Source: Chloroflexota bacterium
GTDB taxonomy: Bacteria > Chloroflexota > UBA11872 > VXNJ01
Assembly: GCA_965208775.1 (NCBI GenBank)
Contig: OZ242360.1
Coordinates: forward strand, 2,589,404-2,653,403
Reading direction: 5' to 3'
DNA length: 64,000 nucleotides
Shown here: positions 5,350-53,485 of the stretch, piece by piece
Numbering within the stretch: the stretch's first letter is position 1
Layout of the letters: each line of letters begins with the position of its first letter
The notes under the pieces: model-generated
What the model was told of the DNA's origin: nothing
Databases searched by the model: none
Seen by the model: the letters and a program-made list of their open reading frames with translations, nothing else
Program-made: the position numbers and the translations under genes

Positions 5350-7750
5350 CGCCACTGCTTTCAGTCGCGGACTCAGGAGTTTCGGCGAGGCCAATCCGTT
5401 GGCGAACTTTCTCCAATTCGAAGTCCCGGTAACGGTCGCCCTCGCCGAGGAGTTGATCCTGAATATAGGGCAAGACCGAGTGCTTCCAGATACGCTCGAT
5501 CCACTCTTCATCCAGGTTATCGCGCATGAAGTGGCTTGGTCCCACGGCCGCCTGACGGTCGTCCAGTTCCCTATTGACCTGATCCACCGCATCGGCGATC
5601 CACTCGAGGTCTGACTCATTCTCTTTCAGCCATCGGTGCAGCAGTCCCTCGATGGGCTCTTCGTCCGGGAAGAACGGCACGAAATGGAACCTCCTCCGCA
5701 GCGCCGCGTCCAGCAGCGAAATCGTCCGGTCGGCGGTGTTCATCGTGCCGATGATCCACAGGTTCTCCGGCAGCGAGAACTCCCGTTCGGAATACTGGAG
5801 CTCGATGTTCTGGTCCCGATATTCGAGCAGGAAGTAAAGCTCGCCGAAGACCTTCGCAAGATTGCCCCGGTTGATCTCGTCGATGATCAGGACGTGTATC
5901 GCCTGCGAGTCGCTCCCGCGCGCTTGGTCGGCGAGCCGCCTCAGCGGCCCCTTCCGCAGCTTGAAGCCCGGCTGGCCACTATCAAGCTCGGCGGGACGAA
6001 ACCCCTCCACGAAATCCTCGTAGGCGTACGATGGATGGAACTGCACCAGCAGGACCGCCCCTGCGTCTCCCGCAACAGTCTCGGCAAACTTCCTCGCAAC
6101 GTACGTCTTCCCAGTCCCCGGTGGCCCATAGAAGATCACCTGCCGCTTGTCCTCGAGCAGGCGTTCTATCTCCTCCAAGTGGGCTACGTCGATGTGGACA
6201 TCGGCGGCGAGTTTCTCGAAGCTCGTCTCCTCCTTGCCATCCACTTCACCCTCGAATTCTTTATCGTCAGCGACATCGATCCCCCCTCGATACCGGCGGA
6301 ACGCTTCCCGCTCTGCCTCCGACAGCGGGAGGTCTTCGACGGGCCACTTGACCATTAGCCAGAGCAGCGATTGAGCGTCCAGCCTATCCCGCAGCTCTAG
6401 CCCTCGTTTCGATGCTTCCTCCAGAACCCTGTCGAAGAAGGCAAGCGCGTGGTCGTAGGTTTCGGCTTCGTCGGCCTCGCTTGGAGGATAGGAGTATCCA
6501 GTCAAGTCGAAGCCCTTTTCGAGAGCCGTGACTTGATAGGTCGGATAGTCGACAGCACTAACGCCCATCATGAGAAAGGCCATCAGGTTTAAGCGAGTAC
6601 CCCTTCCACTGAGAACGTCACGAGGAAGCCGCTTCGAGAACCCTCGCACCCGCTCATGAGCAGAAACGTCTGACATCCAAATCGCGGCCAGCGCCGCTTG
6701 AGCTTGCCTTGGTTCGTGCCTCAACCACCTTAGGAAGTTGTCGTACGTGAAAAATGGCACTAAGGGGTATTTGTGCTTGAATACTGGTTCGAGCGACTCG
6801 ACCCACTCCTTGCTCTGCCAATCTTCGATCGTCCGCCCCCTCCCAATCGGCCCCCTCTCTAATTGCTCGGCGATTTTGACCTTGTAGTCGCGCTCCGTCT
6901 CATCAAATCTCGGCCAGGTATACAGTCGTCTCGCCCAATGAATGAAGTGTGCCCACGGGTCTGCTTCCCACTTCCACAACGAGCCAACTGGCCTCTCATA
7001 GAAGCCAAAACCTTCCGCGTACCCGTAGACAGCGGTCAGCCGAGTGCGTATCTCGGCAATCTTCCTGTCGATGTCGTCAGTTGGCTTAATGAGCAGGTAA
7101 TCGAAAGCGCCAACGAACGCGCGCTTGTCGTTCTGGGTCACCATAGGCTCGAACACGTCGGGATATACCAGATGCAGGACGGCGTCGCGCTGAGTCTGAG
7201 ATCCGGGGGCGTTTACCTCATATAGTGCACTCTTGAAGGTATAAGGACGACGCAGTGCCTCGTCTTGCTCATCGTCACTAAGCCGCTTCCATTTCCTTAG
7301 GAACTGACCGATGAGAGATATCTGCCTATTTCTATTGCTGCCGAACGCTCTTCCGGGATGCACAATGCCAAAGTCAAGGACCTCGTCGAGGTCTTCGGGA
7401 ATGGCTATCGGACTGTCGGCCCAACGTTGCCCGCTGACAAGTTCCCGTTTTCTTCGGCCCCCCACCGCCTGGGGTACGGGAAGCAAGAGGTGGACATAGA
7501 GAATCTCTGCCGCCAGTTGAATCGTCTGGGGCGGAGCGCCGGCTAACAGCCGATTGAACTTGACTTCGAACGAATCGGACGATTCGTCCTCCTGTAACAC
7601 GAACCGGTTATAGAAGTCCTCGAGACTCGACTGGGACCAAATCGGTTCTCCCGGCGTAAAGAGCGAGTCATCACTCCTAAACGCCGCGTCCACCCATCGA
7701 CTTGCCGCCCAATAGACGGCTTCTGCTCCACGCCCGGTCTTCTTCGCCAT
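5327..7750 (-). CDS. mcrB: McrB-family AAA+ GTPase with a ~520-aa uncharacterised N-terminal domain
   Basis: C-terminal half contains GPPGTGKT (Walker A), LIIDEINRGN and GTMNTADRS, the McrB GTPase signatures. The N-terminal ~520 aa has no domain I recognise. Confidence 0.75.
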   Translation of the reverse strand: MAKKTGRGAEAVYWAASRWVDAAFRSDDSLFTPGEPIWSQSSLEDFYNRFVLQEDESSDSFEVKFNRLLAGAPPQTIQLAAEILYVHLLLPVPQAVGGRRKRELVSGQRWADSPIAIPEDLDEVLDFGIVHPGRAFGSNRNRQISLIGQFLRKWKRLSDDEQDEALRRPYTFKSALYEVNAPGSQTQRDAVLHLVYPDVFEPMVTQNDKRAFVGAFDYLLIKPTDDIDRKIAEIRTRLTAVYGYAEGFGFYERPVGSLWKWEADPWAHFIHWARRLYTWPRFDETERDYKVKIAEQLERGPIGRGRTIEDWQSKEWVESLEPVFKHKYPLVPFFTYDNFLRWLRHEPRQAQAALAAIWMSDVSAHERVRGFSKRLPRDVLSGRGTRLNLMAFLMMGVSAVDYPTYQVTALEKGFDLTGYSYPPSEADEAETYDHALAFFDRVLEEASKRGLELRDRLDAQSLLWLMVKWPVEDLPLSEAEREAFRRYRGGIDVADDKEFEGEVDGKEETSFEKLAADVHIDVAHLEEIERLLEDKRQVIFYGPPGTGKTYVARKFAETVAGDAGAVLLVQFHPSYAYEDFVEGFRPAELDSGQPGFKLRKGPLRRLADQARGSDSQAIHVLIIDEINRGNLAKVFGELYFLLEYRDQNIELQYSEREFSLPENLWIIGTMNTADRTISLLDAALRRRFHFVPFFPDEEPIEGLLHRWLKENESDLEWIADAVDQVNRELDDRQAAVGPSHFMRDNLDEEWIERIWKHSVLPYIQDQLLGEGDRYRDFELEKVRQRIGLAETPESATESSGDAPSPTD

Positions 7751-9294: not shown

Positions 9295-10244
9295 TGCAAG
9301 GCAGTTTAGAGCCAATTGTCACGCATAATATACGAGGTGGTTCAAGAGCCGCACGACAGGAGGTCAAGATCATCCGTTTGTCGAACTTGAAGCGCTTTAT
9401 CTCCGTGATCATTCTTGCCGGAGGCTTGTCGGCAGTGGTTGGAACGGCTGCCGCTCACGAGGACGACAGGACCGACGAGTGGCCGATGACGTGTGTCGAT
9501 TTGAACGACATCGTCGAATAGCACCTCAGCAACCCCCACAACGTCGGCATCTATCAGAACACCATCGGCGACCAAGCCGAAGCCGCCTGCCAGAGCGACC
9601 ACCGCAACGACGTGCGCTCCGTCTTCGCCTGGGCTGTTGGGAGAACTGACGACGCTGCCGCGGCGCCACCGTCCCAAGCCTTCCTCGAATTGACGGTAAC
9701 GAGAGCCGACGCTCCGGCAGACCTACCGCGATGCGATCGCGACGAGTGGGGACGCTGGCGCGATGCCGACAGCGACTGCCAGGACACGTGACAAGAAGTC
9801 CTTGCTGACGAGAGCCTCGTGCCGGTCACGTACAAAACCGACCGGCAATGCAGAGTTGCAACCGGCGAGTGGTTCGGAGCGTTCACGGGAACGACGGTCG
9901 AGGAGCCGGGCACCTTGGACATCGACCACCTCGTACCGCTCGCGAACGCGCACAAATCAGGCGCTTGGGCGTGGTCAAAGGAAGGGAAACACGCCTATTA
10001 CAACAGCCTGGACGACGCAGACCACCTGATTGCGGTGACAGCGAGTGCCAACCGGTCCAAGGGTGCCCGAGGCCCGGACGAGTGGCGACCGACCAACGAA
10101 GCTTACTGGTGCGAATACGCGAGAGACTGGGTCAGGATCAAGGGGGCGTGGGGACTGACGGTGACCTCAGCCGAGGCGCAGGCGCTTGAAGAGATGCTGA
10201 GCCGCTGCGATGCGCCGACGCGAATCGTGATTACCCTGAGCTGA
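9294..10244 (+). pseudogene. Secreted DUF1524/HNH-type nuclease gene disrupted by two in-frame nonsense codons (TAG 9519-9521, TGA 9789-9791)
   Basis: One frame, read through both stops, gives a signal peptide (IILAGGLSAVVGTAAA), then ...RCDRDEWGRWRDADSDCQDT*QEVLADE... and the DUF1524 core DIDHLVPLANAHKSGAWAW...ASANRSKG..PDEWRP. The two stops split it into tracked ORFs 9294-9521 and 9819-10244. Confidence 0.55.
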
Positions 10245-12426: not shown

Positions 12427-13628
12427 GGCAGACATAGAGTTGCGCTTGCAGGTGGTGAATCGTTCGATTCGAGCCTGTCAGCGCTGACCAATTCAAGCCA
12501 CCTCAACTGCATCAGTGGGCAGTCGATTCCAATGCGTCGTTCCAGTCCCGTCGTTTCCATTGGCGTTTCAAGGAGGCACGCAAGCAGACGTCACGCTTCC
12601 GTATGTTTCTTCGTCTCCCTCTTGGACGACCTGTAGCCGACCGGCATTTCAGTGAAGACTTAGGTACGGTTTTCGCCGTCATTGCCCAACTTGCGGCGCT
12701 GACTGCTTACCGCAGTACGCATGGTGCGAGCATCGGCGTAGGCCTGAAGGCCCCGGTCCCTGTTGATCATCGGGCGTCAGGCCGGTTCTGACGAAGTCCG
12801 GGGGCCTGCTCGACCTGCCCAGGGTCGTGATCACGCCGTTACCGGAGTCCGTCAACGCCCGGGCGCTCTCAACCACCTCCTGGAACACGGTGTCGAAATC
12901 GAGGCTCTCATTTACGCACAGGCCGGCCTCGCTAAGCCGCGGCAGCCGGTCTCTGAGAGCCTGACTCTCCAGATCTCGAAGGTCCTCTCGGTCTAACTAT
13001 AGGCCTCGATTGGGCGGCGAAAGGTCCGGTAATCCAGCTGATGTGAAACGCCAATTGTGGCTACCGATTGGGTGTTTCTAGAGCAATTATGCCGGCTTTT
13101 ACTGAAACTCACACTGATCTTATGCAAACGGGTCGCTATTCTCACGCCCATCTTATATACGACTTCTAGACTAAAGCGTCACTGACCCGCCGAGGGGAGG
13201 CAGCCGCTTGGCTTTCGACTTCGATGCGTCCGAGTTTGTGGACGCCGAGCGGTTCCCAAAAGTCGAGCGTGGTGCCGGCGTGTCACTAACCGGGACGTCC
13301 CCAACGGGAGTGCGGCGTGGCCACGAGGGTCCGGGAATGGCGTGAGTGGCATGAGAGCAACCGCCGGCATTTGCACTTGTCATCGGTGTTGCAGTCGTGG
13401 TCATCCGGCCATTCATCGTCTAACTCTTCCGGGCAAGCCGTTTCCCAGGGCTGATTGGCGCGCAACTCACCTGGCCCTGGTCACGGAGGGCGGGGCAGCG
13501 TCTCCCTGGTGCCTCTTCATCACTTAGCCAGCTGGCCGCCCCGCCCTTTTCAGAATGGAGCGCCATGCGGGAGCGAGACGTCGTTGTCCTGATCGCGGCT
13601 GTCCTGATAGTCCTGGTCCTGTTCTTCG
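12427..13628. repeat. Copy A of a ~1.2 kb imperfect direct repeat (~90% identity with 60558-61790)
   Basis: Alignment by eye: ...gttgcgcttgcaggtggtgaatcgttcgattcgagcctgtcagcgctgaccaattcaagccacc... through ...ggccgccccgcccttttcagaatggagcgccatgcgggagcgagacgtcgttgtcctgatcgcgg. Contains an AT-richer stretch (13000-13200) plus the promoter/5'UTR and first ~20 codons of the downstream lipoprotein gene. Confidence 0.85.
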
Positions 13629-15709
13629 TAGGTTGCGTGGATTCCTCCGAGCCTGCGTCACCTGAGCAAGGCGCCGTTCAGAAGTCGGTTCTCAGACCCG
13701 GTGCCATAACGCCGGCACCGAACCCCGATCATTTCACGCAGGTAGCGGTCGGCGAAGATCACTTTTGCGCCTTGCAACGGTACGGGAAGGTCATCTGCTG
13801 GGGCGAAAATGCTGACGGGCAACTTAACGTTCCCAGCGGTGCCAGGTTCAGCCAAATCACGGCCGGATACCGCTTTTCCTGCGGGATTCAGACGGACGGC
13901 CGAATCGCCTGTTGGGGCTCGAACGCGCATAACAAAACTGATGCGCCGGAAGGGACGTTCACGGCCATAGACGCCGGCTGGGACCACGCTTGCGCGCTTG
14001 ATGGCGACGCCGCAGTGTGCTGGGGTTGGGAAGTCGACGGACGCACGACATCCCCCGATGTCACCTTCACTGCAATCGAGTCCGGCGCCGAGCACAGTTG
14101 CGGCTTGACCCCAGACGGAGATTTGCGCTGCTGGGGGAAGAATGACAACGGGCGGGCCGATTCCCGCAGCGGCCCTTTTATCGCGCTGGCGGTCGGCATC
14201 GCGCACACGTGCGTTTTGCAAAGCGACGGCAGAGTCTCATGCCAGGGTGACAATGCGTTCGGCCAGTCCGATCCTCCCGACACGAAGTTCGCGCAAATCA
14301 CCGCCGGTTCGGAACACTCCTGCGGGATTTTGTCTAACGGCGCTCTTAAGTGCTGGGGAGGTTATCCAGACAGATACAGCAAGATCGAGAACCGCCAGTT
14401 GGATGCGCCGACCGGTATTTTCTCGTCGATAGATGCCGGATGGAGGAACACGTGTGTGGTGGCAGCTCAGGGCCACGCCGAGTGCTGGGAATACTCGTAC
14501 CGGACGATCCCGTTCCCGCCTTACGATCGCCTGAATTTCGAGGACGTGCTTCCGGGCCATAAGTCCCATCAACCGACTGAGGTCTTCCCCTGGCCGGCGG
14601 GCGGGCTGGCGGTGGCCGAAAGGGCTGGCACTATCGTTGCGTACGCCGCCGGCGGGGAGCCCATCCCCATCCTCGACTTGACGGATCGAACTGACTCCGA
14701 CGGCAGTGAGAACGGCTTGCTCAGCGCTGCGGTCGATCCGGACTTCAGCGAGTTTCCATTCCTCTATGTTTTCTACACGACGCCGGTTGAGAGCAGCGAG
14801 TACAAGACATCGACACGGCTTGCGCGCTTCCCGGTAGTCGACGGCGTTGCCGTGCGTGAAGAAGAACTAACTATCCTCGACCTACCTCAAATTAGGCCCC
14901 ACAACTACCACTATGGCGGAGCGATCAGGTTCGGACCGGACGGGATGCTGTACCTGGGACTAGGCGACGGCCACTGCTTTCTGTGCCCGCAAAGTCTGGA
15001 AAGTCTGCACGGAAAGATCATTCGCATCGATGTGCGCGGAGCATCGGCCGAGCAGCCGTATAGCGTGCCGGACGACAACCCGTTCGTCGGAGTGTCTAAC
15101 GCGCGGCCAGAGATTTGGGCGTACGGTTTGCGGAACCCGTGGCGCATGGCGTTCGATTCCCAAGACGGCAGGCTTTGGGTTGCCGACGTCGGCATGCATG
15201 CAGAAGAAGAAGTAACGATTGCGGCGGCGGGCGCAAACCTGGGATGGCCGCTATTCGAAGGCTTCGACTGCTTCACCGCCGATGACATCGTCATAAAGCA
15301 TGAGTACGAGATCGTTACGGAGTATGAGTGCAGCGAATTCGAAGACCTCACGTCGCCGGTTGCCAGCTATGGGCGCTTGCAGGGATGCGCCGTGGTCGGC
15401 GGGGTTGTATATCGGGGCGCCAAGATTCCCTGGCTGGACGGCGTTTATCTCTTTTCCGACTTCTGCAGCGGGCGGATTTGGGCGCTCGACCACAGCGTCG
15501 AGTCGGGCTGGCGAATGGTAGAGGTCGCGGATTTGCCCTTGCCTGTCAGTTCCTTCGGAACCGATGAGGTCGGCAACGTTTATGTGCTCACGTTTGCCGG
15601 CCCGATCCTCCGCCTGGTCGAGGCTGAGTCAGGATACGTGAATCCTCCTGCAAACACCCTATCGTCGCGGACTTTCACACCGCCTGCCGACCGAAATAGC
15701 GTCCCCTAG
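13565..15709 (+). CDS. Lipoprotein with a 7-blade RCC1-like propeller plus a C-terminal sorbosone/glucose-dehydrogenase-like (SGL) beta-propeller
   Basis: Signal peptide with lipobox LFFVGC. Seven repeats of the form ...HxCxL..dG.v.CWG.N..GQ (RCC1/BLIP-II-like). C-terminal GLRNPWRMAFD..DGRLWVADVG is typical of the PQQ/soluble-glucose-dehydrogenase-like fold. Confidence 0.65.
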   Translation: MRERDVVVLIAAVLIVLVLFFVGCVDSSEPASPEQGAVQKSVLRPGAITPAPNPDHFTQVAVGEDHFCALQRYGKVICWGENADGQLNVPSGARFSQITAGYRFSCGIQTDGRIACWGSNAHNKTDAPEGTFTAIDAGWDHACALDGDAAVCWGWEVDGRTTSPDVTFTAIESGAEHSCGLTPDGDLRCWGKNDNGRADSRSGPFIALAVGIAHTCVLQSDGRVSCQGDNAFGQSDPPDTKFAQITAGSEHSCGILSNGALKCWGGYPDRYSKIENRQLDAPTGIFSSIDAGWRNTCVVAAQGHAECWEYSYRTIPFPPYDRLNFEDVLPGHKSHQPTEVFPWPAGGLAVAERAGTIVAYAAGGEPIPILDLTDRTDSDGSENGLLSAAVDPDFSEFPFLYVFYTTPVESSEYKTSTRLARFPVVDGVAVREEELTILDLPQIRPHNYHYGGAIRFGPDGMLYLGLGDGHCFLCPQSLESLHGKIIRIDVRGASAEQPYSVPDDNPFVGVSNARPEIWAYGLRNPWRMAFDSQDGRLWVADVGMHAEEEVTIAAAGANLGWPLFEGFDCFTADDIVIKHEYEIVTEYECSEFEDLTSPVASYGRLQGCAVVGGVVYRGAKIPWLDGVYLFSDFCSGRIWALDHSVESGWRMVEVADLPLPVSSFGTDEVGNVYVLTFAGPILRLVEAESGYVNPPANTLSSRTFTPPADRNSVP

Positions 15710-16111: not shown

Positions 16112-17344
16112 TTAGAGCGTTCCCCAGTCGACCCATTTGAGGGCGTCAACGGAGAAGCCTCGATCCCACACGCGGGTCTTTAGCGGATCTAAGAACGGTA
16201 CGTTCTTGAGCGCGAGTGGCCTTGAGTCAGCCAGAGTGATTACTTGAATGGGTACACGCCGGTGCCCCCAACGTGTTGCATCAGTCCGATCCTGATAGTC
16301 GACTAGCAGCCTGCCGAGCGCCTCGTACGCGTGGGTGTCGTAGTAGGGCATAGAGTACCCGATTACGACGATACAGGAGACTTCATTATGTGCCCGATGA
16401 AGATTCTCCCAAAGGTCCAGGATTGGCGCGTTTCCAAGCAGCTTGTCTTGCGCTGGCGGGAGAATGAACGGGACCACAGTTCCGAATCTACTTTCGATGG
16501 GGAAGTGCTCGACGTGATTTGGGACACGACGGACTCGGGACAGGATGTTCTTCCCAAATATCTCTGTAGGTCCCTTCGAGAGCGGCTCCGATGGTACTGA
16601 AGGCGCTGGACCGAAGATCGGATCCTCGTTGGGTACTTGGTCACCTTGCTCTTTGTGCCATGCCATGGACTCGTCAAGGTAGAAGCGGTCGTACCAGTCG
16701 ATCGATCCGTGGAGCTTTATTAGGTCGACGTACTTCGGTCGGAATTGAGCAGGATCGTCTTTGAGCCACCACTGAGGCGTAAGGCTGTAAGGCTTGCCAA
16801 TGTCATCAAGCGCCTGCTCCAAGAGGGAGTCGTAGTTGAATGTGAGCACAACGTCATCGGGACCCAGTTCCTCGGCGAAGTCCCTGAACAATTGCGGTGT
16901 GTCCATGGGAGTTGCCTTGATGAGTATCTCTTGAATCGCCCTTCGCGCGGCGACTATCGATCGGCTGCCATGATTGAAGTACTCTTCAGAACCAATCAGC
17001 CCCAGATAGTGCTTTCGATGACTGTACGCGAGCACCCGCTCAAGGTCGATCGGCCGGCCTGGATACAGCGTGGTCCACTCGGCTATTTCCTCTTCAAGGG
17101 GACCTTCCCAACCGAAGTCGCGGAAGTAACGCCGGAGGTCCTTTCGGACCAGATCAAGAAGCTCTTCGCCTAGTGGTAAGCCAGCTGGGGCCGAGAAGCC
17201 GGCGCCCAGTACAAATAGGCGATAAATGGGCCGGTCCATACTGTGGAGGTTCCCCCGCGCGACGGGCGGCTGTGTTTCGTGGAATTCGCCCGCCAAATGG
17301 TCAGCGAAAATGTTCATTCCCATTCTCATCCATGAAATCTGCAT
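16112..17344 (-). CDS. Standalone SIR2-like (SIR2_2/PF13289-type) protein, putative NAD+-depleting defense effector; true start probably near 17239
   Basis: LFVLGAGFSAPAGLPLG..., VVLTFNYDSLLEQAL, DLIKLHGSIDW and IVVIGYSMPYYD match the defense-associated SIR2-like family signatures (GAGxS ... TxNYD ... KLHGS ... IGYS). No other domain in 410 aa. Confidence 0.6.
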   Translation of the reverse strand: MQISWMRMGMNIFADHLAGEFHETQPPVARGNLHSMDRPIYRLFVLGAGFSAPAGLPLGEELLDLVRKDLRRYFRDFGWEGPLEEEIAEWTTLYPGRPIDLERVLAYSHRKHYLGLIGSEEYFNHGSRSIVAARRAIQEILIKATPMDTPQLFRDFAEELGPDDVVLTFNYDSLLEQALDDIGKPYSLTPQWWLKDDPAQFRPKYVDLIKLHGSIDWYDRFYLDESMAWHKEQGDQVPNEDPIFGPAPSVPSEPLSKGPTEIFGKNILSRVRRVPNHVEHFPIESRFGTVVPFILPPAQDKLLGNAPILDLWENLHRAHNEVSCIVVIGYSMPYYDTHAYEALGRLLVDYQDRTDATRWGHRRVPIQVITLADSRPLALKNVPFLDPLKTRVWDRGFSVDALKWVDWGTL

Positions 17345-17855: not shown

Positions 17856-19358
17856 CTACTGGAGGGCCGCTCCAAAGACGTGTAGTGCAACTGCCAACGA
17901 TTCGTCGATCCACTCGTTGAACTGAGTGAGAACTTGATCGTTTCTGTCTCTTTCGGTGAACGTGAACGCTGTATCGCTGCAATCGACAGCCTGCTTATCG
18001 GGCCCCACGGCAGGTTCCTCGTCCCCGTTGTACCACCAAACCTCCCCGAAACAGGTAGCAGCCATTACGCCGGATAGTGGCGCTCCAACATGGTGTAGGG
18101 AGATAACGTAAACCAGACGCAGTTTCTCAAACGAAACATTTGCTTGAACCCAGTACCGAGCTTCGGATCGGTTCGCCCAATGTCCGAGTCGTTTTGCGGT
18201 GTTGACGATTTGGAACCACCAATAGTCCTCTTCGGCGGCACCGGGTCCTGCACTGCGCACCCAGTGAGCGAGTTCCAAGCCTTGCCGCTCAAACTCCCAC
18301 GACACGTCCTCCAACTTCTGTTCGAGGAAGTCGGTCGCATGGTTGTATAGCCAAGATGCGGCGTCGTTGACCTTTCGCAATTCCTCGAACTTCTCCATCT
18401 CCCTAGCTCGATGGCGACTAGCGAGAGCTGAGGCAACCTGATCGATTTTGCTTCGGCTGGGATCAGCCACCGTTACTTCTTCCGTGGCTGCTTTGGCAGT
18501 TTCTGAGACGGCGGTCAGCAGGTCCCGACGTTGCAGTTTCGCGAACAGATTTGTCAGAGTTACGAGGTCACCCGTGTCGGCCTCTTCCAGCGCGGTGATG
18601 TATTCATCGCGGTCCTCTCGATCGACGCGCAGAGGAAAGTAATCACCCTTGATCAAGACCATTGACGCTAAGGCGCGCGCGACGCGTCCGTTGCCATCCT
18701 GAAACGGATGAATGGCTACGAAGGCGTGGTGCAGCCAAGCAGCAGCCGCCGCAGGATGGAACCGAGAATTGAGCGTCCCAAAAATGTCAACGAGCCGCGT
18801 CATCTCGACACCCGTTTGCTCGGGTGGGGCATATTCGTGAACAGTGCCATTCGGCCGAGTCGGATTATTGGGATGCAGCTTGTACTGTCCGTGCTGCAGG
18901 CGCGTACTCACTCGCCCTCCGAATTGGTCGACACCTTCGACGTAGTCTTGGTGACGAGTGATTAGCGCGTGCAACTCCTTTATGAAGCCTTCGGTCAGGT
19001 CACGTGTTCCGCCCACAAAGTCCATCACGAAGTCCAACGACTCCCTTTGATCTCGAATCAGATCAATGGTGTTGGCAGAAACCACGCCTCCAACCCGGTC
19101 GATCGCGTCAGCTGTGATGCCATGAGCGATAATCGTCTCTGTGATGCCTCTGTCCAGCTCGTACAGCCCTTCGATAATCCCGGTCTCGATCGCGATGGAC
19201 CTGTAGAGGCGTTCCGTGAATCGCGAAAGCAGGGCTTCACTAAGTTCCGACTTAACCCCGACCCAGAGATCGCGGACGTGATCCAACCTCTCAAGATCGT
19301 CTGTTACCTGATGCCTGAATTGCTCCGATGGAGGGTCAATGGGTCTCCAGCCAGACAA
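17856..19358 (-). CDS. Fic/Doc-family protein (predicted AMP/NMP-transferase), 500 aa
   Basis: Canonical Fic motif HPFQDGNGRVARAL (HxFx[DE]GNGRxxR) in the middle of the protein. Long N- and C-terminal extensions. Confidence 0.8.
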   Translation of the reverse strand: MSGWRPIDPPSEQFRHQVTDDLERLDHVRDLWVGVKSELSEALLSRFTERLYRSIAIETGIIEGLYELDRGITETIIAHGITADAIDRVGGVVSANTIDLIRDQRESLDFVMDFVGGTRDLTEGFIKELHALITRHQDYVEGVDQFGGRVSTRLQHGQYKLHPNNPTRPNGTVHEYAPPEQTGVEMTRLVDIFGTLNSRFHPAAAAAWLHHAFVAIHPFQDGNGRVARALASMVLIKGDYFPLRVDREDRDEYITALEEADTGDLVTLTNLFAKLQRRDLLTAVSETAKAATEEVTVADPSRSKIDQVASALASRHRAREMEKFEELRKVNDAASWLYNHATDFLEQKLEDVSWEFERQGLELAHWVRSAGPGAAEEDYWWFQIVNTAKRLGHWANRSEARYWVQANVSFEKLRLVYVISLHHVGAPLSGVMAATCFGEVWWYNGDEEPAVGPDKQAVDCSDTAFTFTERDRNDQVLTQFNEWIDESLAVALHVFGAALQ

Positions 19359-19669: not shown

Positions 19670-21268
19670 CTAGACGAAGCCTCTGTCCTTGGCCAGTATC
19701 CAGATCAATACCACCGCATCTGCGCACACTCCCGTCAAATGTCTGACCACTTCAAATCCAAGAAATCGAGGTCGATGGCTTACCAGATTGCGAGCAGCCA
19801 CAGCTGCTACTAGTGTGCGGGCGACTGCTTCATCACACTTGACGTCAGATTCGTGCGTGGCCCTGACCAGATTCAAGGCGCGGTAGTCGAGATCACCCTT
19901 CTTGTCAGAAGTCTGGCCTGTGCTCTTCAGTTTCATGAAACAGGTGTGCCACGCGGTATTTTGACCAAGGACCTCGATAAGATCGGAGTAGCTCTTTCCA
20001 TGGTGAGCTACAGGCTCGCTATGGGATGCGTCTTCGATAGGGTCCCGCCGTGCACCCACGATGCCACGTAAGAGTTGCTCTCCGGCTAGCGCCAACGGTC
20101 GGAGTCTCCGATTGTGGAATCCCGGAAATCGATCGCGTCTTTGATCGCTTGTCGTGAAGGAGTAGTGCTGTAGGCTGAACAGAACTTCCAGCAGATCGTG
20201 GTCAAGGCAGAATCCCACGATCTCCTCCGCTACGTCGCCGAGATCGTCGCGACTCGAGATAACCCGAGTTACGGGGTCGCGCCCAAGTACAACATTCAGG
20301 CTCCGTCTCGCCTCGGAGGCCGCAACCTCAACCGGGTCATGCCGTTTGAGTTCGGCGACGAGCCCCCTCCCAACATGGCGGTCGGCAGCGGCGAGGAAAC
20401 TATCCCAGTCGTAGCTGAAGGCTAGACCGGCAAGGTTCTCCGCGTCCCGAAGGTACTCATCCGCATCCTCGGCGAGTGAGATGCGCTCGTTACGACGGTA
20501 TTTGGTGATCAGTCTGATTAGCTCGCCGAGAAAACTGAACAACGCAGGCTCCTCCAAGCCGGACATCGCCAGAGCTCGGCGTGCCCGCTTGGCGCGAACC
20601 GACTTTAGTCTGCTATACGCCGCGTCTGACAGCTCCTGTCCGCTAGAAAGCCCGTTAAACGCGTCGCGATAGGAGGCCTGATCTGCGAACCGAATGAGCT
20701 CCAGCGCATCGAAGCCGATCGCCATACCGCGAAGAGACCGAATTCGCTCAGTGTCTGTGGGGATGTAATGCGAAGTGTCCAAGTGTTGCCAAAACTGCGA
20801 ATGAGTGTAGTAGTAGCGGTTTTGGCGCAACAGTTCGACTGCATGCACTTGCCACGGAGCGTAGTAGCGATCGACTGTAGGCTCCTGAACTATGTTGCCG
20901 TCCGGCATGGTTACGGAGATGCGATGCGTTCCCCAAGGCGCGAATGTTGTGCAGTCCGGTGTTACCAGAAATCGGTTATTGCCACGCTCGAGGTCGAATA
21001 CGTGAAGACCGTCTATGTCCCTTCGCTGTAAACGCTGCCACTGTCCAGGGGGGTCGAGGTCATCGGGGTGATTTACTTCAACGCCAAGGTTGCGCTCGGT
21101 AACGGCAACGGCATGGGCGGTAGGCGCATGTGTTGCAAAAGCGGGCAACAGTAGGCAGTGCCGCTCGTAGAACTCCAGTTCCCTATCAGTAAGGAATCTC
21201 ACATTGAGAGCGTCAGCGTGACACCTGAACTGCCGGGTCTCGAGGAAGCGTCTACCATGCTGGTTCAA
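19670..21268 (-). CDS. Hypothetical 532-aa protein with a C-terminal HEPN-like Rx4H motif (AARNLVSHRP)
   Basis: Coding-like ORF with no similarity I recognise in the N-terminal 450 aa. The C-terminal RN...H motif is in the position typical of HEPN RNase / Abi-type proteins. Motif-level evidence only. Confidence 0.4.
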   Translation of the reverse strand: MNQHGRRFLETRQFRCHADALNVRFLTDRELEFYERHCLLLPAFATHAPTAHAVAVTERNLGVEVNHPDDLDPPGQWQRLQRRDIDGLHVFDLERGNNRFLVTPDCTTFAPWGTHRISVTMPDGNIVQEPTVDRYYAPWQVHAVELLRQNRYYYTHSQFWQHLDTSHYIPTDTERIRSLRGMAIGFDALELIRFADQASYRDAFNGLSSGQELSDAAYSRLKSVRAKRARRALAMSGLEEPALFSFLGELIRLITKYRRNERISLAEDADEYLRDAENLAGLAFSYDWDSFLAAADRHVGRGLVAELKRHDPVEVAASEARRSLNVVLGRDPVTRVISSRDDLGDVAEEIVGFCLDHDLLEVLFSLQHYSFTTSDQRRDRFPGFHNRRLRPLALAGEQLLRGIVGARRDPIEDASHSEPVAHHGKSYSDLIEVLGQNTAWHTCFMKLKSTGQTSDKKGDLDYRALNLVRATHESDVKCDEAVARTLVAAVAARNLVSHRPRFLGFEVVRHLTGVCADAVVLIWILAKDRGFV

Positions 21269-21470: not shown

Positions 21471-24400
21471 AGTCTTTCCCCGTGTGTACGGGGCACTTCA
21501 CGTGTCGGCGATTCACTGGAAATGACCTCGAGGCTGTCCCCGCGTGTGCGGGGACAGCCACAGGTGGCCCATTTGCGCAGGCCGGAATGAGTCTATCCTC
21601 GCGCGTCCGGGGGAACCGTCACGCTGGCGGGATTCGTCCATCTCGGCTGAGGTCTATCCCCGCGCGTACGGGGGAACCACGATCTGCCCCAGCTGCCCGA
21701 TCTTTTGGACGAGTCTATCCCCGCGCGTACGGGGGAACCACCGGCTCGGAGGCCTGGCGAGCACCAAGGACCTGTCTATCCCCGCGCGTACGGGGGAACC
21801 ACCCTCTATCGCGACGGTCACGCGTTTCGCAACGGTCTATCCCCGCGCGTACGGGGGAACCGTCTCGCGAGCGCTCGCGGGCGCGGGCGCGTAAGGTCTA
21901 TCCCCGCGCGTACGGGGGAACCAAAACGGACTTCCAGCAACTGTCTGCCTCAATGGGTCTATCCCCGCGCGTACGGGGGAACCTCCAGATGCACGCGCCG
22001 ATAGTCGCAACGGTGAGGTCTATCCCCGCGCGTACGGGGGAACCTTGAACTTGCCTTCGTCCACAACCGTCCCATAGGGTCTATCCCCGCGCGTACGGGG
22101 GAACCCCGTCAAGGGGGCGGGGAAAGGCAACGACGAAAGGTCTATCCCCGCGCGTACGGGGGAACCCGCAGGTTGCTGCCAACTGCTGCAAGAGCCACAG
22201 GTCTATCCCCGCGCGTACGGGGGAACCACTGTCGAGCCGGGCGAATACTCGGCCGTGTCGGGTCTATCCCCGCGCGTACGGGGGAACCGACACGGCGGGC
22301 CGGTATCCAGCACGACCGAAGGGTCTATCCCCGCGCGTACGGGGGAACCCCGGGATTCCAGCACACACACGCGCTTGACCAGGGTCTATCCCCGCGCGTA
22401 CGGGGGAACCAGGTTCTGGTTGTACAGATGCGCCGAGCTGATCGGTCTATCCCCGCGCGTACGGGGGAACCGAGTACGGCGCCGTCCACATCATGCATGT
22501 CCCCGGTCTATCCCCGCGCGTACGGGGGAACCCCCGATGCCCACGACATGATGATCGGCGATTGGGGTCTATCCCCGCGCGTACGGGGGAACCTATACAC
22601 TACAAGCCCTCGGTCAGCTCCCTCAGGGTCTATCCCCGCGCGTACGGGGGAACCCACAGCCGTTGCATCAAGGCTCTGCCCAAACGCGGTCTATCCCCGC
22701 GCGTACGGGGGAACCAATCCGCCCTTCGCGCGTACCTTCGTTGACGGCGGTCTATCCCCGCGCGTACGGGGGAACCATCTGGTCTGCGGCAACTCATACT
22801 GGCTGAAGGGGTCTATCCCCGCGCGTACGGGGGAACCTCCTTGCTTGGCCGGATCAATCCCTGTATGGCGGGTCTATCCCCGCGCGTACGGGGGAACCCG
22901 ACGGCTGGTGGATGGGACTATTACCGCTGGTGGTCTATCCCCGCGCGTACGGGGGAACCAGCCTCAAAGTCTTTGCCATGCAGGGCAAACGAGGTCTATC
23001 CCCGCGCGTACGGGGGAACCAGTATCCATCGCTTACGAAGGCAAGGAAGGTAAGGTCTATCCCCGCGCGTACGGGGGAACCTTGAACAGGTCCCATGCAA
23101 TGGTCTCGAAGGCGGGTCTATCCCCGCGCGTACGGGGGAACCTGGCGACTCCCGCCGCGCCGCCTGAAACGGTGAGGTCTATCCCCGCGCGTACGGGGGA
23201 ACCGGCAGGCTGCGGCGGAACGGTGCTATTCTGCAGGGTCTATCCCCGCGCGTACGGGGGAACCATTCCAGGATGGTTGGCTCATCGCGCTTGGCTGGGT
23301 CTATCCCCGCGCGTACGGGGGAACCTCCAACTCCCGGCGGCCTATGAAGCCGACGCGGGGTCTATCCCCGCGCGTACGGGGGAACCTCAAGCGGAGCGCG
23401 GGAGGCTGGGCCTTCGGCGGGTCTATCCCCGCGCGTACGGGGGAACCGCCACGTGCGGCGTCTGCGGCGCCTCGGACGGGGGTCTATCCCCGCGCGTACG
23501 GGGGAACCCCGCAGAGAGCTAAAGAGACGATCAGGGAACCGGGTCTATCCCCGCGCGTACGGGGGAACCATGTGGAGATCCAGCAGACCGACGGCACGAC
23601 CGGGTCTATCCCCGCGCGTACGGGGGAACCGAGTCCGAGGTCGTGGCCGCTATGGGCGCCGCGGGTCTATCCCCGCGCGTACGGGGGAACCCGCTTGTAC
23701 GCGCGCTCGGTGTTGGGCAGGTCGGGTCTATCCCCGCGCGTACGGGGGAACCTCCGCCGGGCACCGCCGCCCGATTGATATCTAAGGTCTATCCCCGCGC
23801 GTACGGGGGAACCGCCATTTCGTACCTCCAGGTACTCCGATCCCAAGGTCTATCCCCGCGCGTACGGGGGAACCACGTCGCCATTGGCGCGGAGTGTCAG
23901 CGACCGGGGTCTATCCCCGCGCGTACGGGGGAACCACTGTCTTGCGCCGTTCGGGATCGCCCCATTGGGGTCTATCCCCGCGCGTACGGGGGAACCTCCA
24001 CCACCAGCTCTCCGGCCACTACTCCCTCCGGTCTATCCCCGCGCGTACGGGGGAACCATGTGGAGATCCAGCAGACCGACGGCACGACCGGGTCTATCCC
24101 CGCGCGTACGGGGGAACCGAGTCCGAGGTCGTGGCCGCTATGGGCGCCGCGGGTCTATCCCCGCGCGTACGGGGGAACCCGGCTCAGTCAGCGAGGTAGC
24201 CAATGAGTAGTGGGTCTATCCCCGCGCGTACGGGGGAACCGGTCCCGCGCCGCAACCCTTTGACACGCAGGCCGGTCTATCCCCGCGCGTACGGGGGAAC
24301 CTGGCAACGCCACCATTGACTCCGTCTCTTCTGGGGTCTATCCCCGCGCGTACGGGGGAACCGACCGCAAAAGATCTTCCCGATTAGGGTTTACAGGTCT

Positions 24401-25767
24401 ATCCCCGCGCGTACGGGGGAACCGCGTGCGGGGCCGGCGGGTGCCCGTCCATGGAGGGTCTATCCCCGCGCGTACGGGGGAACCATGCCCCATCGGTAGT
24501 CGCGCTTATCTGTCACCGGTCTATCCCCGCGCGTACGGGGGAACCCGGCGCGGCGCGCAACCGCGAGTGCTGCGCTGAGGTCTATCCCCGCGCGTACGGG
24601 GGAACCCCCGTTGCCGTTGCCGTTGCCGTTGCTGTAGACGGTCTATCCCCGCGCGTACGGGGGAACCTTAAGCGCGTAATCCTCACTGATGAGCGCATCC
24701 GGTCTATCCCCGCGCGTACGGGGGAACCGACGGCCGGCTCGATAGCGGGCGCCGTCTACAAGGTCTATCCCCGCGCGTACGGGGGAACCGTGAGCGTAGG
24801 CTCAACGAGCGAGGCTAGTGAGGGTCTATCCCCGCGCGTACGGGGGAACCACTTCTTCCCGCTGTTCTACGAGCCCACAGAGCGGTCTATCCCCGCGCGT
24901 ACGGGGGAACCATGAGGGTGAGTGGAAACCGCTGAGTGAGTAGGGGTCTATCCCCGCGCGTACGGGGGAACCCCCGCGTGTTCAAGGAGAACGGCCGGGC
25001 GTACGAGGTCTATCCCCGCGCGTACGGGGGAACCTAGCGTCCGTCAACCAGCAGCTCGAGAACGACAGGTCTATCCCCGCGCGTACGGGGGAACCAACCG
25101 GGGGCTTGGCGGTTCTGCTGGCCTAGAAGGTCTATCCCCGCGCGTACGGGGGAACCTTCTACCGCCGGGAGTCCGTCAACGACGGCGAGGGTCTATCCCC
25201 GCGCGTACGGGGGAACCCACCGTTTACCAGGGCTTTGATTGCTTGGGCGAGGTCTATCCCCGCGCGTACGGGGGAACCCCGAACTGCCTGGCACCTGCTC
25301 GGTATGCCTGAGGTCTATCCCCGCGCGTACGGGGGAACCGGATAGATTTGACGCTAGGTGTTATGTTGGTAGGGTCTATCCCCGCGCGTACGGGGGAACC
25401 ATCACCAAAGGCGAAGCTATCAAGCTGCTGCGAGGTCTATCCCCGCGCGTACGGGGGAACCGGAGTGTTGGGAGCGCTTGCACTGATCGCCTACGGTCTA
25501 TCCCCGCGCGTACGGGGGAACCCGCCAACTGGGCATCCAAGCCAAACAGGACCCAGGTCTATCCCCGCGCGTACGGGGGAACCTGCCATTTCGTACCTCC
25601 AGGTACTCCGAATCAAGGTCTATCCCCGCGCGTACGGGGGAACCGCGAGCGAGACCATCGAGGATACGCTGGACAGAGGTCTATCCCCGCGCGTACGGGG
25701 GAACCCTAAGGAAGCGATAGCGGCAGACTCTTTTGTGCGGTCTATCCCCGCGCGTACGGGGGAACCC
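21471..25767 (-). CRISPR. Type I-E CRISPR array: 68 canonical repeats plus 3 degenerate trailer repeats, ~70 spacers of 32-33 nt, transcribed on the minus strand
   Basis: Plus-strand repeat (N)GTCTATCCCCGCGCGTACGGGGGAACC with 61-nt periodicity (first canonical copy at 21651, last at 25740). Its reverse complement GGTTCCCCCGTACGCGCGGGGATAGAC aligns with the E. coli I-E repeat GAGTTCCCCGCGCCAGCGGGGATAAACCG in crRNA sense. Degenerate copies at ~21471, 21532 and 21591 mark the old (trailer) end; cas2 lies at the other end. Confidence 0.97.
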
Positions 25768-25816
25768 TTAGCGGCTGGACAGTTGACCCAGCCCATTTTC
25801 GACTCCGCGAACGCAG
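25768..25816 (-). promoter_or_regulatory. Putative CRISPR leader (~50 nt between the cas2 stop and the first repeat); unusually short, may extend into the cas2 3' end
   Basis: Position between the cas2 stop (25817-25819) and the leader-proximal repeat. No IHF-like or -10 motif confidently identified. Confidence 0.35.
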
Positions 25817-26104
25817 CTAGTTGTACTTTACTAAGTGCACTCCGTCTGCGTTTACGATTGTCTTCGGTGCCTCGCCCAGCGTCCGTATGCCCTGTCCTCC
25901 GGGGGCCTTGGGATCATGCCATGTCATCACAATCGCGCCCTGCCACAGCTGGTTGTACCAGTCTCTTAACACCCCCCAGATGCGATCCCGGATCCCACTC
26001 GTCATTTGCGGCGATGTGTATACGCCTGGCGCTATCTCCAGCATCGTTGATGCCAGGAAACCGCGGTAACGAGCCTCTACGTTTACAGTGACAACAACGG
26101 TCAT
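25817..26104 (-). CDS. cas2: Cas2 (type I-E)
   Basis: 95 aa, MTVVVTVNVEAR.RGFLA...EIAPGVY aligns with E. coli Cas2 [31 protein letters not shown]. Sits between cas1 and the array. Confidence 0.85.
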   Translation of the reverse strand: MTVVVTVNVEARYRGFLASTMLEIAPGVYTSPQMTSGIRDRIWGVLRDWYNQLWQGAIVMTWHDPKAPGGQGIRTLGEAPKTIVNADGVHLVKYN

Positions 26105-26139
26105 GTCCGCAGTCCTTCTGGATCGCCGGTTAGCACGGC

Positions 26140-27039
26140 TCAGTTCCCGCGCTCGACCGGCTTAACGTCTTCAAACAGCACCTTGATCCGATCGATCATC
26201 TTCGGGATCACGTTCTCAGTCCGGAGCATGTCCCCGGTGGTTCGTCGGGTCAGGCGTTCGATGTTCAAATACGGTTTTTCATCAGCCGTCCGAGCGGCCT
26301 TGAACGCGGCAGGCAGCAGAACCGTGTCTCGGAACAGATCGGCGATGTCGAGGGCAAAGGCGTCGCCACTGTGCTCGTGGATGAAGCCCAGCTGCGGAAT
26401 GGCGCCGACCGCAGTCACCGCGATCACCGCCGCCGAGGTCACTGCCACTGACGCGTGATTGATGGTTTGGTTTGGTATGTCAGCCGCCATCGGGTTGGCT
26501 CGATCATAACGTCGCCCCTGCCATGTGATGCCGTGCCGGCGGGCCAGGTTCTTGTACGTCTGCTTCATGCGAGCGCCCTCGACCCCCCGAAGGGCGTCTA
26601 AGCTCTGATGCGGCAATACCTCGCCTAGCCGCAGCGCATACATCTTGCGGGCGATCGTGATGCGGCTGTCCTCGGAGTCGGCCCAAGCGCGCATTTGCCT
26701 GCGGGCAATCTCGGACGTGTCAGGGAGCAGGGGTGGGGCGGTGTAACAGCGGACGCCATCCTCACCGACCGCCACCAGCGCCGTGCCGTGCCGCGCCATT
26801 AGTCGCAACGCGTCGTGACTCACAGTCGAGCCCGGTCCCAGGAGGATCATCGAGAGTGCTTGAAAAGGGATTCCATACTCGCCGCCTTCGAGTGGGTCCG
26901 TGTCATCACGGTCGGCGCGGCGCTCGAAGCGCAGCGTGCCATCTCGGACCGTCAGCGCCCCCCGACTCAGCCACAGCAGGCCATGACGGTCCGCGTGCGG
27001 GATTCTTGCGGTCTCTAACCCGAGTCTGCCTCTCAGCAT
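26140..27039 (-). CDS. cas1: Cas1 (type I-E)
   Basis: 299 aa; size and position fit, and several blocks (GVTWQGRRYD ~ GVTWNGRRYD; FIHEHSGDAFALDIADLFR ~ FVHTGKPLSFVYDIADIIK) match E. coli Cas1. Confidence 0.9.
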   Translation of the reverse strand: MLRGRLGLETARIPHADRHGLLWLSRGALTVRDGTLRFERRADRDDTDPLEGGEYGIPFQALSMILLGPGSTVSHDALRLMARHGTALVAVGEDGVRCYTAPPLLPDTSEIARRQMRAWADSEDSRITIARKMYALRLGEVLPHQSLDALRGVEGARMKQTYKNLARRHGITWQGRRYDRANPMAADIPNQTINHASVAVTSAAVIAVTAVGAIPQLGFIHEHSGDAFALDIADLFRDTVLLPAAFKAARTADEKPYLNIERLTRRTTGDMLRTENVIPKMIDRIKVLFEDVKPVERGN

Positions 27040-27275
27040 TTCAAATCACCTCCTGCCACCACGGCAGTCCGAACGCCCGCCGCGCGCACTCGCAATCCCC
27101 CGGACTCCAACCCAGCTTCCCCCTGACTGCCGAGCATTCTGTGGTCTCCGGCTCACGCTGCGACGGTAATTCGAAATTATGGATCTATTCAGTTGTTAAG
27201 GTGCGACCACGCTGCCAGAGGGCAGCGTGGTTTGTTCGGAGGCTGGAAAGGGTTCGAAGCCTGCGTCGCGGCCTC

Positions 27276-28010
27276 CTAGGAGGCTGCTGTTGTTTGCCGA
27301 CGGGCCGGACGCAGGAGCAGCATGCCGTATCCGTAGGCCCGGTGCCGTCCAACTCCCCGAGCCAAGAGATCAGCGAACGCCCCCGCATCGGTGACGGTCA
27401 TGGTTCCTTGCATCAGGGCGCGAGGCCCTTCGCTCGCGCGTGCTCCGAGCTTCCTGACCGTACGCACGCGTTGGAAGGACTTGAGCGTCGCCGCCTCCAG
27501 CCGAGCTCCACTCCGTTCCAACCTTTGGCCCAGCCAGTCCGTGTAGACCTCCTCCCGGCTGCGCTCCATGCCTCCCTTCAGATGGCGCTCGGCTTCTACC
27601 TGGAATGCATCACGCTCCTTGCCTGCCATTTGGGATCCCCTCGCGTGCCGGACGATCGGACGGACCAGCACCTCAAACCCCAACCGCCGCCCAGTGTCCC
27701 ATACGCTGGGCATCTCTTTGCTGTCGATCCCTGAAGAAGGCAGTACTTTGGCTTGCAGCGGATCGGCGTAAGCGGCCGCGGCTTGGCGCAAATCGTCCGC
27801 CGTTGCCAGGGAGTAGCCGTACACGACTCCGAGCCGACCGCGGCTATCGCGGGCAATTATCACGCGAAACGGCTTGGGTGCGAGGTCGCCAAAACTCTCC
27901 ACAAACATGCAGTGCATGGCGAACCCCTCATCAAAGGCGCTTCGGCTGATCAGCCCCCTCGAACCCGCCCAGCGATTGAAGGCTCGTACGTCGAGGTCAG
28001 CGCGGATCAT
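27276..28010 (-). CDS. cas6e: Cas6e (CasE); start taken at internal Met (MIRADLDVRAF...)
   Basis: C-terminal GVGRHRAYGYGMLLL resembles the Cas6e glycine-rich loop GIGPAKSMGCGLLSL. Lies between cas5 and cas1. The tracked ORF extends to 28067 but overlaps cas5. Confidence 0.75.
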   Translation of the reverse strand: MIRADLDVRAFNRWAGSRGLISRSAFDEGFAMHCMFVESFGDLAPKPFRVIIARDSRGRLGVVYGYSLATADDLRQAAAAYADPLQAKVLPSSGIDSKEMPSVWDTGRRLGFEVLVRPIVRHARGSQMAGKERDAFQVEAERHLKGGMERSREEVYTDWLGQRLERSGARLEAATLKSFQRVRTVRKLGARASEGPRALMQGTMTVTDAGAFADLLARGVGRHRAYGYGMLLLRPARRQTTAAS

Positions 28011-28063
28011 GTGGAGCGGTTGGGAGTCGGGATCGGATGGACGGACCGGCTGGCTCGCCGCTG

Positions 28064-28825: not shown

Positions 28826-28829
28826 TCGC

Positions 28830-30011: not shown

Positions 30012-30053
30012 TCGAGTACTCCTTCTAACCTCTTCCCAGTTCCCGGTTGAAAC

Positions 30054-32205: not shown

Positions 32206-32231
32206 GGTAGCGCATATCCCTTAAGCCCCGT

Positions 32232-49626: not shown

Positions 49627-51467
<1,841 letters not shown>

Positions 51468-51471
<4 letters not shown>

Positions 51472-53337: not shown

Positions 53338-53415
53338 TGACCGGCGAAATCCGCGTTGATGATCTCGACTTGCACGTGATCAAGCAACCGCTTCACCTCG
53401 ATGGAGAGATCCCTT
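53242..53415 (+). repeat. Second copy of the hsdS 3' conserved tail (gene-fragment remnant; frame-0 segment ...HRKRAILDELFKPLLHKLMTGEIRVDDLDL...)
   Basis: Direct nucleotide repeat of 52604-52690 (caccgcaaacgcgccatcctcgacgaactcttcaagcccctcctccacaagctaatgaccgg). Preceded by stops in frame and has no start codon. Confidence 0.7.
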
Positions 53416-53485
53416 GAGTGTGAAAGCCACCGCCCATTTGCCCACCTCCGCCGAAGCCAAATGCCAATGAAGATAAGGAGAACAG

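Follow-up and report, generated by a model that had tools for sequence, protein, structure and literature searches.

A solitary SIR2_2-family gene in a Chloroflexota defense island as a candidate one-protein NADase immune effector

The minus strand of a 64,000-nucleotide stretch of DNA from a Chloroflexota bacterium (GenBank assembly GCA_965208775.1, contig OZ242360.1, positions 2,589,404 to 2,653,403), hereafter the window, carries a gene for a small SIR2-like protein that has no sensor partner. This is a genuine, intact gene; its product has a SIR2 fold with invariant catalytic residues and no extra domain, no partner is conserved beside it, and its family is frequently found in a defense-related or mobile context. 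By analogy with described SIR2 systems, we consider with moderate confidence that the protein is a self-contained, one-protein NADase immune effector, or abortive-infection module. The mechanistically understood SIR2 defenses couple the NADase to a separate sensor, namely a SLOG domain with a TIR signal, HerA, a prokaryotic Argonaute (pAgo), a STAND protein, the C-terminus of the DSR proteins or KomA/KomB. The family described here, with more than 1000 representatives at 50% clustering, consists of partnerless single-domain SIR2 proteins with intact catalytic residues, and it raises the question of how a single fold can restrain such a toxic activity and later release it.

The SIR2_2 gene and its product

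The longest open reading frame (ORF) at this locus (16112-17344, minus strand; 410 amino acids, aa) is an intact gene of the SIR2_2 family. The Pfam SIR2_2 profile (PF13289; cut-off 24.5 bits) gives it 36.2 bits and E=7.6e-9 in a match limited to the catalytic core (residues 165-225 of the 410-aa ORF, profile positions 2-60 of 141), and a search of 5.8 billion proteins returned 621 homologs with E-values down to 1e-259. The profile match and the homologs together establish that this is a genuine gene, not a chance ORF, in line with the initial annotation of the window, which had described a SIR2-like ORF here. The best 120 of the 621 homologs share 62-79% identity with the window protein, mostly over 99-100% of the 375-aa query, and are almost always 375-390 aa long; all 120 listed have a precomputed PF13289 hit. 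A HMMER scan of 1.84 billion representatives at 50% clustering found 1183 relatives at E≤1e-3, which, fragments aside, are nearly all ~360-410 aa long, with a few longer members of 469-593 aa; these uniform lengths indicate that fusion to sensor domains is rare. The SIR2 family is widespread and uncharacterized, and its ~380-aa proteins are encoded as solitary genes.

The length had first been given as ~375-410 aa, a range that very probably resolves to its lower end, 375 aa. In alignment the family N-terminus reads M(N/D)LP..RLF(V/I)LGAGFS, and in the aligned upstream DNA of six close homologs (450 nt) conservation starts exactly at the ATG at 17239. Because the family N-terminus and the DNA conservation both begin at this codon, the true start is very probably there and the predicted product has 375 aa. 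N-terminal extensions at other loci are unrelated to the 35-codon extension of the window ORF, and an exact-sequence look-up with the 410-aa product found no match. Residue numbers refer to the 375-aa protein unless the 410-aa ORF is stated.

The catalytic asparagine and histidine that the initial annotation had proposed to check are both present and invariant, as N135 and H177. In a 46-member alignment of the wider family (25-69% identity to the window protein), which takes in the RefSeq "SIR2 family protein" WP_007092476.1 of a Thalassospira plasmid, residues G12, G14, F15, S16, N135, D137, H177, G178 and S179 are invariant, and the motifs that hold them, GAGFS (12-16), FNYD (N135, D137) and KLHGS (H177), are invariant in the close clade as well. 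The same motifs align to those of the antiphage NADases PsSIR2 (of SIR2-HerA) and KomC (of Kongming). There is a single cysteine in the 375-aa protein, which therefore lacks the Cys4 zinc module of deacylating sirtuins, and a Pfam scan gave no hit at E≤0.1 to PF02146, the family of the canonical Sir2/CobB deacylases. Profile, motifs and zinc-less fold place the protein in the SIR2_2 ("SIRim") class. By analogy with the antiphage members of this class, the enzyme is predicted to be catalytically competent and would act as an NAD+ hydrolase.

An AlphaFold2 model built from 40 homologs (mean pLDDT 79, pTM 0.84) shows a single compact SIR2 fold with six core strands (residues 7-11, 130-133, 171-175, 289-293, 331-334 and 355-358) and helices between them. 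When the model was compared with the PDB using Foldseek, the top matches were the SIR2 subunits of SIR2-HerA (8wld, 8w9l, 8sub), with E-values down to 2e-8, TM ~0.5 and 12-18% identity, followed by the SIR2 chains of KomC, DSR2, ThsA and SPARSA, all at probability 1.00; the canonical deacylases CobB and SIRT2 rank below these antiphage structures. Alignments to the 340-400-aa SIR2 chains span 360-430 columns, that is, the whole protein. The possibility, raised initially, that the C-terminal 150 aa form a separate sensor domain is not borne out by the model: the C-terminal part is predicted to contribute three strands to the Rossmann core, with block pLDDT values of 78-95 as far as residue 370 and 65 over the last five residues, and its IVVIGYS strand aligns to the IGYS strand of KomC.

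What distinguishes this SIR2 family is a conserved insertion of ~100 residues between the strand that carries the catalytic histidine and the GYS strand. The distance from H177 to the IGYS strand is ~115 residues, against ~40 in KomC, so that the insertion is ~75 residues longer. It is strongly conserved, with the motifs PIFGP, RVFRVPNH and VVPFILPPAxDKLLG, and P257 and K266 are invariant throughout the family. We regard this segment as a candidate regulatory, sensing or oligomerization element.

Neighborhoods of the family

The loci compared comprised five long contigs of metagenome-assembled genomes (MAGs) with close homologs (L002-L006); one Chloroflexota MAG locus (L001), the sole locus returned by a single-sequence-query scan of genome contigs; 80 metagenome loci, ~24 of them with full-length members of 27-57% identity; one plasmid; and three IMG/VR contigs. 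For the census we took 30 non-redundant loci, with SIR2 proteins of 27-80% identity to that of the window, and clustered all-against-all the non-overlapping ORFs lying within 4 kb on either side. No cluster of neighbor proteins spans more than 2 of the 30 loci, and the three clusters that reach two loci are reverse transcriptases, tyrosine integrases and one family without Pfam hits. A Pfam scan of the 130 neighbors found 142 families, none with more than two members. TIR_2 occurs in 2 of the 130; the one that was located (L017:3963-4853, minus strand) contains a TIR-type motif and is encoded ~1.7 kb away from the SIR2 gene, on the other strand and beyond an intervening gene. The HerA, Piwi, pAgo and STAND families are not recurrent in this set, HerA is not next to the SIR2 gene in the window or in L001-L031, and none of the annotated large ORFs of the window encodes HerA, TIR, pAgo or STAND proteins.

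The flanks were also compared below the level of annotated genes. When stop-to-stop segments (≥25 aa) from the 700 nt flanking the gene on each side were clustered across 34 loci, the only ones recovered were the termini of the SIR2 protein itself, with no sign of a hidden small partner ORF. By blastn, the only sequence common to the flanks is the SIR2 gene's own ends. No conserved leader precedes the start codon in the 450 nt upstream in six close homologs, no Rfam family was found in the window, and a promoter and terminator scan gave counts no higher than in shuffled sequence. The genomic position of the gene is not syntenic between any two loci. Solitude is thus a property of the family and not an accident of the window copy, so that the earlier statement that no sensor partner is present extends from one gene to its homologs; these are not consistently encoded beside HerA, TIR or pAgo genes, the arrangement that the initial annotation had named as evidence for an orphaned component. 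Nothing supports a partner encoded non-adjacently. As a separate observation, the match of the SIR2 copy at L001 (8001-9065, 72% identity) begins only at residue 26 and the longest ORF there at residue 66; this copy may be disrupted.

Many of the homologs lie among genes of defense or mobility. The close homologs are accompanied by a type I restriction-modification (R-M) system, MmeI, an AAA_13 ATPase and a transposase (L002); by a reverse transcriptase, an insertion sequence and a type I R-M system with Fic/RhuM (L003); by an integrative and conjugative element with type IV secretion genes and an Eco57I-like enzyme (L004); and by recombinases, transposases and a Gp49/HTH pair (L005). An Abi_C protein is encoded at L015, the plasmid copy from Thalassospira adjoins an "abortive infection family protein" and a RES-Xre pair, and three members of the family are on IMG/VR viral contigs.

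The defense island and alternative explanations

The window itself is a defense island, whose genes were identified with Pfam (Table 1). The immediate neighbors of the SIR2 gene are those initially named, a Fic gene on the same strand and a lipoprotein-like RCC1/GSDH gene on the other.

Table 1. Features of the SIR2 gene and of the surrounding window
Feature	Positions	Strand	Basis or remark
Solitary SIR2_2 protein, probable true CDS (375 aa + stop)	16112..17239	-	Homolog span, DNA conservation, Pfam
35-codon 5' extension of the longest ORF, probably untranslated	17240..17344	-	Conserved in no homolog
G12-A-G-F-S16 codons, Rossmann NAD-binding GxGxS motif after strand beta1	17192..17206	-	Invariance; alignment to GAGFS of KomC
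N135-Y136-D137 codons (FNYD), catalytic Asn of SIR2 NADases	16829..16837	-	Invariance; TNYD of PsSIR2/KomC
H177-G178-S179 codons (KLHGS), catalytic His	16703..16711	-	Invariance; KLHGS/KFHG of PsSIR2/KomC
Family-specific insertion, residues ~185-288, between His strand and GYS strand	16376..16687	-	Spacing relative to KomC; conservation
C-terminal part, residues 289-375, strands 289-293 (IVVIGYS), 331-334, 355-358	16112..16375	-	Predicted SIR2 Rossmann fold, no separate domain
McrC	4147-5619		Pfam
McrB-like AAA_5 ATPase	5327-7750		Pfam
Small GmrSD_C-type protein	9819-10244		Pfam
RCC1/GSDH protein, lipobox-like N-terminus	13565-15709	+	Convergent with the SIR2 gene
Fic-domain protein, 500 aa (context only)	17856-19358	-	Pfam Fic E=3e-18; PADLOC PDC-S04 and SoFic
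532-aa protein (context only)	19670-21268	-	No Pfam, NCBIfam or PADLOC hit
Type I-E CRISPR array, 69 repeats	21591-25766	-	Transcribed toward the 532-aa, Fic and SIR2 genes
cas operon (cas1, cas6e, cas5, cas7, cas3)	26140-34778	-	Pfam
Mrr-like endonuclease	36264-37238		Pfam
ParB-methylase	40266-41561		Pfam
1340-aa protein	41733-45755	-	Only recognizable part is an N-terminal MqsA/HTH_31-type DNA-binding domain, residues 2-63
Serine recombinase	46676-48283		Pfam
Type I R-M system with embedded UvrD-like helicase	49627-60002		Pfam

The main rival to an immune role is that the protein is a non-immune NAD-dependent enzyme, for example an ADP-ribosyltransferase, a deacylase or an NAD-sensing regulator, that serves physiology or the maintenance of mobile elements and whose position in the island is incidental; we judge this unlikely, while giving it some weight. 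SirTM-type sirtuins are ADP-ribosyltransferases, and the high sequence conservation of the family, with clade members 62-80% identical to the window protein, would be consistent with a conserved role in the cell as well. Some homologs lie among ordinary metabolic genes (L006 and part of L003), and the family is missing from the 50,697 phage genomes searched and nearly so from plasmids, with a single copy in 72,556. Against such an enzyme stand the lack of the zinc module and of a PF02146 hit, and the fact that the nearest structures are all antiphage NADases. It is further opposed by the lack of synteny between any two loci, together with the transposases, integrases, R-M, toxin-antitoxin and abortive-infection genes that often flank the gene; this non-syntenic position is typical of accessory defense genes and not of housekeeping genes.

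The conservation, the metabolic contexts and the phage and plasmid counts nevertheless tell against an immune effector, and several further results do so too. PADLOC gave no full-length model match, its best being Aga_SIR2 (E=1e-9) over ~70 residues (153-225 of the 410-aa ORF), with the matches to ThsA (E=0.006) and Dsr2 (E=0.06) not significant, and no NCBIfam model matches the ORF. The insertion at ~185-288 is the lowest-confidence part of the structural model, with a pLDDT of 47-87 by 10-residue block. Finally, the association of the family with defense islands is qualitative and no more than suggestive.

A second alternative is that the gene belongs to a system specific to the window, either a three-gene system with the Fic and/or the 532-aa protein, or one supervised by the type I-E CRISPR-Cas (clustered regularly interspaced short palindromic repeats) locus through a CRISPR RNA (crRNA)-like RNA, in the manner of the CRISPR-supervised immune systems (CRISIS). 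CRISPR-supervised sole-Sir2 provides a precedent, and the 532-aa, Fic and SIR2 genes lie on the same strand, downstream of the array and co-directional with it, the Fic gene being upstream of the SIR2 gene. The intergenic gaps of 311 nt and, between the Fic and SIR2 genes, 511-616 nt are unlike those of a tight operon, neither the Fic nor the 532-aa family accompanies the SIR2 homologs, and the 532-aa family is itself solitary elsewhere; we hold this alternative to be very unlikely. Fic was rejected as a partner on the neighbor census, and the 532-aa protein on the census and on the variable contexts of its own family.

A conceivable link to CRISPR is the 13-nt sequence GCGCGGGGGAACC (17248-17260, minus strand), which lies directly before the start codon and is similar to the 3' portion of the CRISPR repeat when the repeat is read on the plus strand. 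Allowing one mismatch, such a 13-mer match arises in 24 of 100 shuffles; the sequence is antisense to the transcribed strand of the array, and it scores below 17/27 against the full repeat. The search for a solitary repeat unit outside the array found only decayed trailer repeats. Spacers match the rest of the window no more often than expected by chance, and their matches to the SIR2 region amount to one exact 13-mer where ~3 are expected. From the shuffles, the antisense orientation, the low repeat score and the chance spacer matches, supervision of the SIR2 gene by CRISPR was rejected; the resemblance of GCGCGGGGGAACC is probably coincidental, and the sequence may supply a ribosome-binding site.

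The weakest alternative, that the gene is an orphaned component of SIR2-HerA (Nezha), Thoeris, SPARSA, Kongming or Avs5 whose partner has been lost or lies elsewhere in the genome, could draw on the similar size (340-400 aa) of the closest solved structures, the SIR2 subunits of SIR2-HerA, and on the two TIR_2 neighbors, including that of L017, and we reject it as the least probable of the three: the neighborhood census largely refutes it, the identity to the SIR2 of SIR2-HerA is only 12-18%, no HerA, TIR or pAgo gene was found among the annotated large ORFs of the window, and the family members have a uniform length of ~380 aa and are conserved along the whole of it, which fits a functional stand-alone gene and not decaying remnants.

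Several features of the island were noted apart from the SIR2 gene. The Fic domain occupies residues 121-235 of the Fic protein and is followed by an unannotated C-terminal half of ~250 residues; the candidate system PDC-S04 and SoFic are the best PADLOC matches of the protein. The 532-aa protein has 81 homologs of ~530 aa (43-76% identity), and in three other genomes its family is solitary among transposases, methylases and an AbiEi-like gene, without Fic or SIR2. It is an independent module, not the missing sensor, and may be an uncharacterized single-gene defense candidate in its own right. The repeats of the CRISPR array presumably read on the minus strand, an orientation that we assigned by comparison with the E. 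coli I-E repeat; so oriented, the leader lies beside the cas genes at 25767-26139 and a degenerate terminal repeat at 21591, with a decayed trailer repeat beyond the array at 21472-21498. Two consecutive spacers of the array are duplicated eight units apart (23570-23664 and 24058-24152).

Farther along the window, the 1340-aa protein adjoins the ParB-methylase and the serine recombinase. In the type I R-M locus an 81-nt segment is present in three copies at 52623-53979 (74-80% identity to the reference copy); these lie downstream of an ORF at 51468-52805, which follows hsdM, and the UvrD-like helicase gene (54039-56012) sits between them and hsdR. The three copies suggest multiple or shuffling fragments of the specificity gene (hsdS). 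A direct repeat of ~1.2 kb (12428-13621 and 60557-61759; 86-96% identity) brackets ~47 kb that hold the lipoprotein gene, SIR2, Fic, CRISPR-Cas, Mrr, the serine recombinase and the type I R-M system. In its second copy only the first ~27 codons of the lipoprotein gene are kept before the frame breaks down. These repeats may be island boundaries or the junction of a segmental duplication.

Proposed mechanism and comparison with known systems

As a one-protein effector, the SIR2 protein would be kept inactive in the uninfected cell, and its SIR2 fold would respond directly to an infection cue; since no partner is available, the cue would have to be read by the SIR2 polypeptide itself. Candidate sensing surfaces are the ~185-288 insertion and the long helical stretch that separates beta1 from beta2. 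A change in the oligomeric state of the protein would be the probable response to the cue, whereupon the active site (GAGFS, N135, H177) could hydrolyze NAD+ to ADP-ribose and nicotinamide, and the loss of NAD+ would starve both the infected cell and the phage. We infer the NADase chemistry from known SIR2_2 systems and the gating by assembly from the filaments of ThsA, KomBC and FAM118B, the SIR2-HerA dodecamer and the DSR2 tetramers, and the defense role and the trigger are likewise proposed by analogy. A bolder form of the proposal, which we advance only tentatively, is that the family is a minimal complete SIR2 immune module in which the ~185-288 insertion takes the place of a fused domain or partner protein, senses the cue and activates the NADase, for example through assembly into a ring or filament. 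If this were true, sensing would be built into the sirtuin fold itself, and the family would offer a tractable bacterial counterpart of the vertebrate FAM118 sirtuins.

Since no full-length PADLOC or NCBIfam model covers the family, searches that rely on those models would miss it or leave it unclassified. Adding it would improve the annotation of defense islands, especially in understudied phyla represented mostly by MAGs. In practical terms this would be a modest gain: the chemistry is probably the familiar depletion of NAD+, and one standalone Sir2 defense has already been reported.

Among the known systems, ThsA, KomC and SPARSA share with the window protein an NADase effector of the SIR2_2 class, and structural matches to all three were found; KomC also has the GAGFS, TNYD, HG and IGYS motifs in common with it. 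Each of these systems differs in what else it needs. Thoeris requires a ThsB TIR and a SLOG (or Macro) domain, whereas the window protein has no second domain and no adjacent TIR; SPARSA requires a short pAgo and an APAZ fused to SIR2, neither present nor recurrent here; and Kongming, with a KomC of ~265 aa, requires KomA/KomB, none recurrent here. In Avs5/AVAST a STAND NTPase is fused to SIR2, while the window protein is a single SIR2 fold without an NTPase domain. SIR2-HerA (Nezha; 8wld, 8w9l, 8sub) is the best structural match, with subunits of 340-400 aa and a TNYD...KLHGSxxW core common to both, but HerA is its defining partner and allosteric activator, and no HerA was found at the loci examined here.

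The vertebrate proteins FAM118B and FAM118A, about 350 aa in length, are likewise standalone SIR2_2 proteins without a zinc module, and provide a model for the gating of a sensor-less SIR2. These proteins (SIRal) process NAD weakly under the control of filament self-assembly, and both FAM118B and the antiphage sirtuins are gated by multimerization (PMC12700824). Their clade is confined to vertebrates, and no FAM118 structure is among the top 50 PDB matches of our model.

DSR1 and DSR2 are single-gene SIR2 NADase defenses with an N-terminal SIR2, to which the structural match reaches E~4e-6. The catalytic residues of DSR2, N133 and H171, have a spacing akin to that of N135 and H177 in the window protein. 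The DSR proteins, however, have ~1000 aa or more and bind phage proteins through a large C-terminal sensor (>600 aa), whereas the window protein ends with the SIR2 fold at residue 375.

The closest parallel is sole-Sir2, a small standalone Sir2 defense gene of ~440 aa that belongs to the CRISIS group and is described in a 2024 preprint (Shu et al., bioRxiv 10.1101/2024.12.27.630466). Its product has a C-terminal Sir2 domain and a distinct N-terminal substructure, the proposed sensor, and converts NAD+ to ADP-ribose in vitro; the gene sits inside type I-C cas operons, accompanied by a solitary repeat unit, and a close homolog without a CRISPR link confers protection on E. coli against T2 and T4 (bioRxiv 10.1101/2024.12.27.630466). 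With this precedent and that of FAM118B (PMC12700824), the novelty of a standalone SIR2 is lower than the initial annotation implied, although the family itself is uncharacterized. Compared by description only, the Sir2 fold of the window protein differs from that of sole-Sir2 in starting at residue 7, with no N-terminal domain, its extra material being an internal insertion. The gene is also separated by 4.2 kb from the trailer end of the array, which is of type I-E, with no repeat unit detected, and no counterpart was found of the crlRNA of sole-Sir2 with its promoter target and protospacer-adjacent motif (PAM), the published protective homolog likewise lacking a CRISPR link. What the two share is a one-gene make-up, a lone small Sir2-like protein, and a place in defense loci that include CRISPR-Cas. 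Taken together, the best-supported reading of these comparisons is that the window protein works most like the single-gene SIR2 defenses DSR1 and DSR2, and especially like sole-Sir2.

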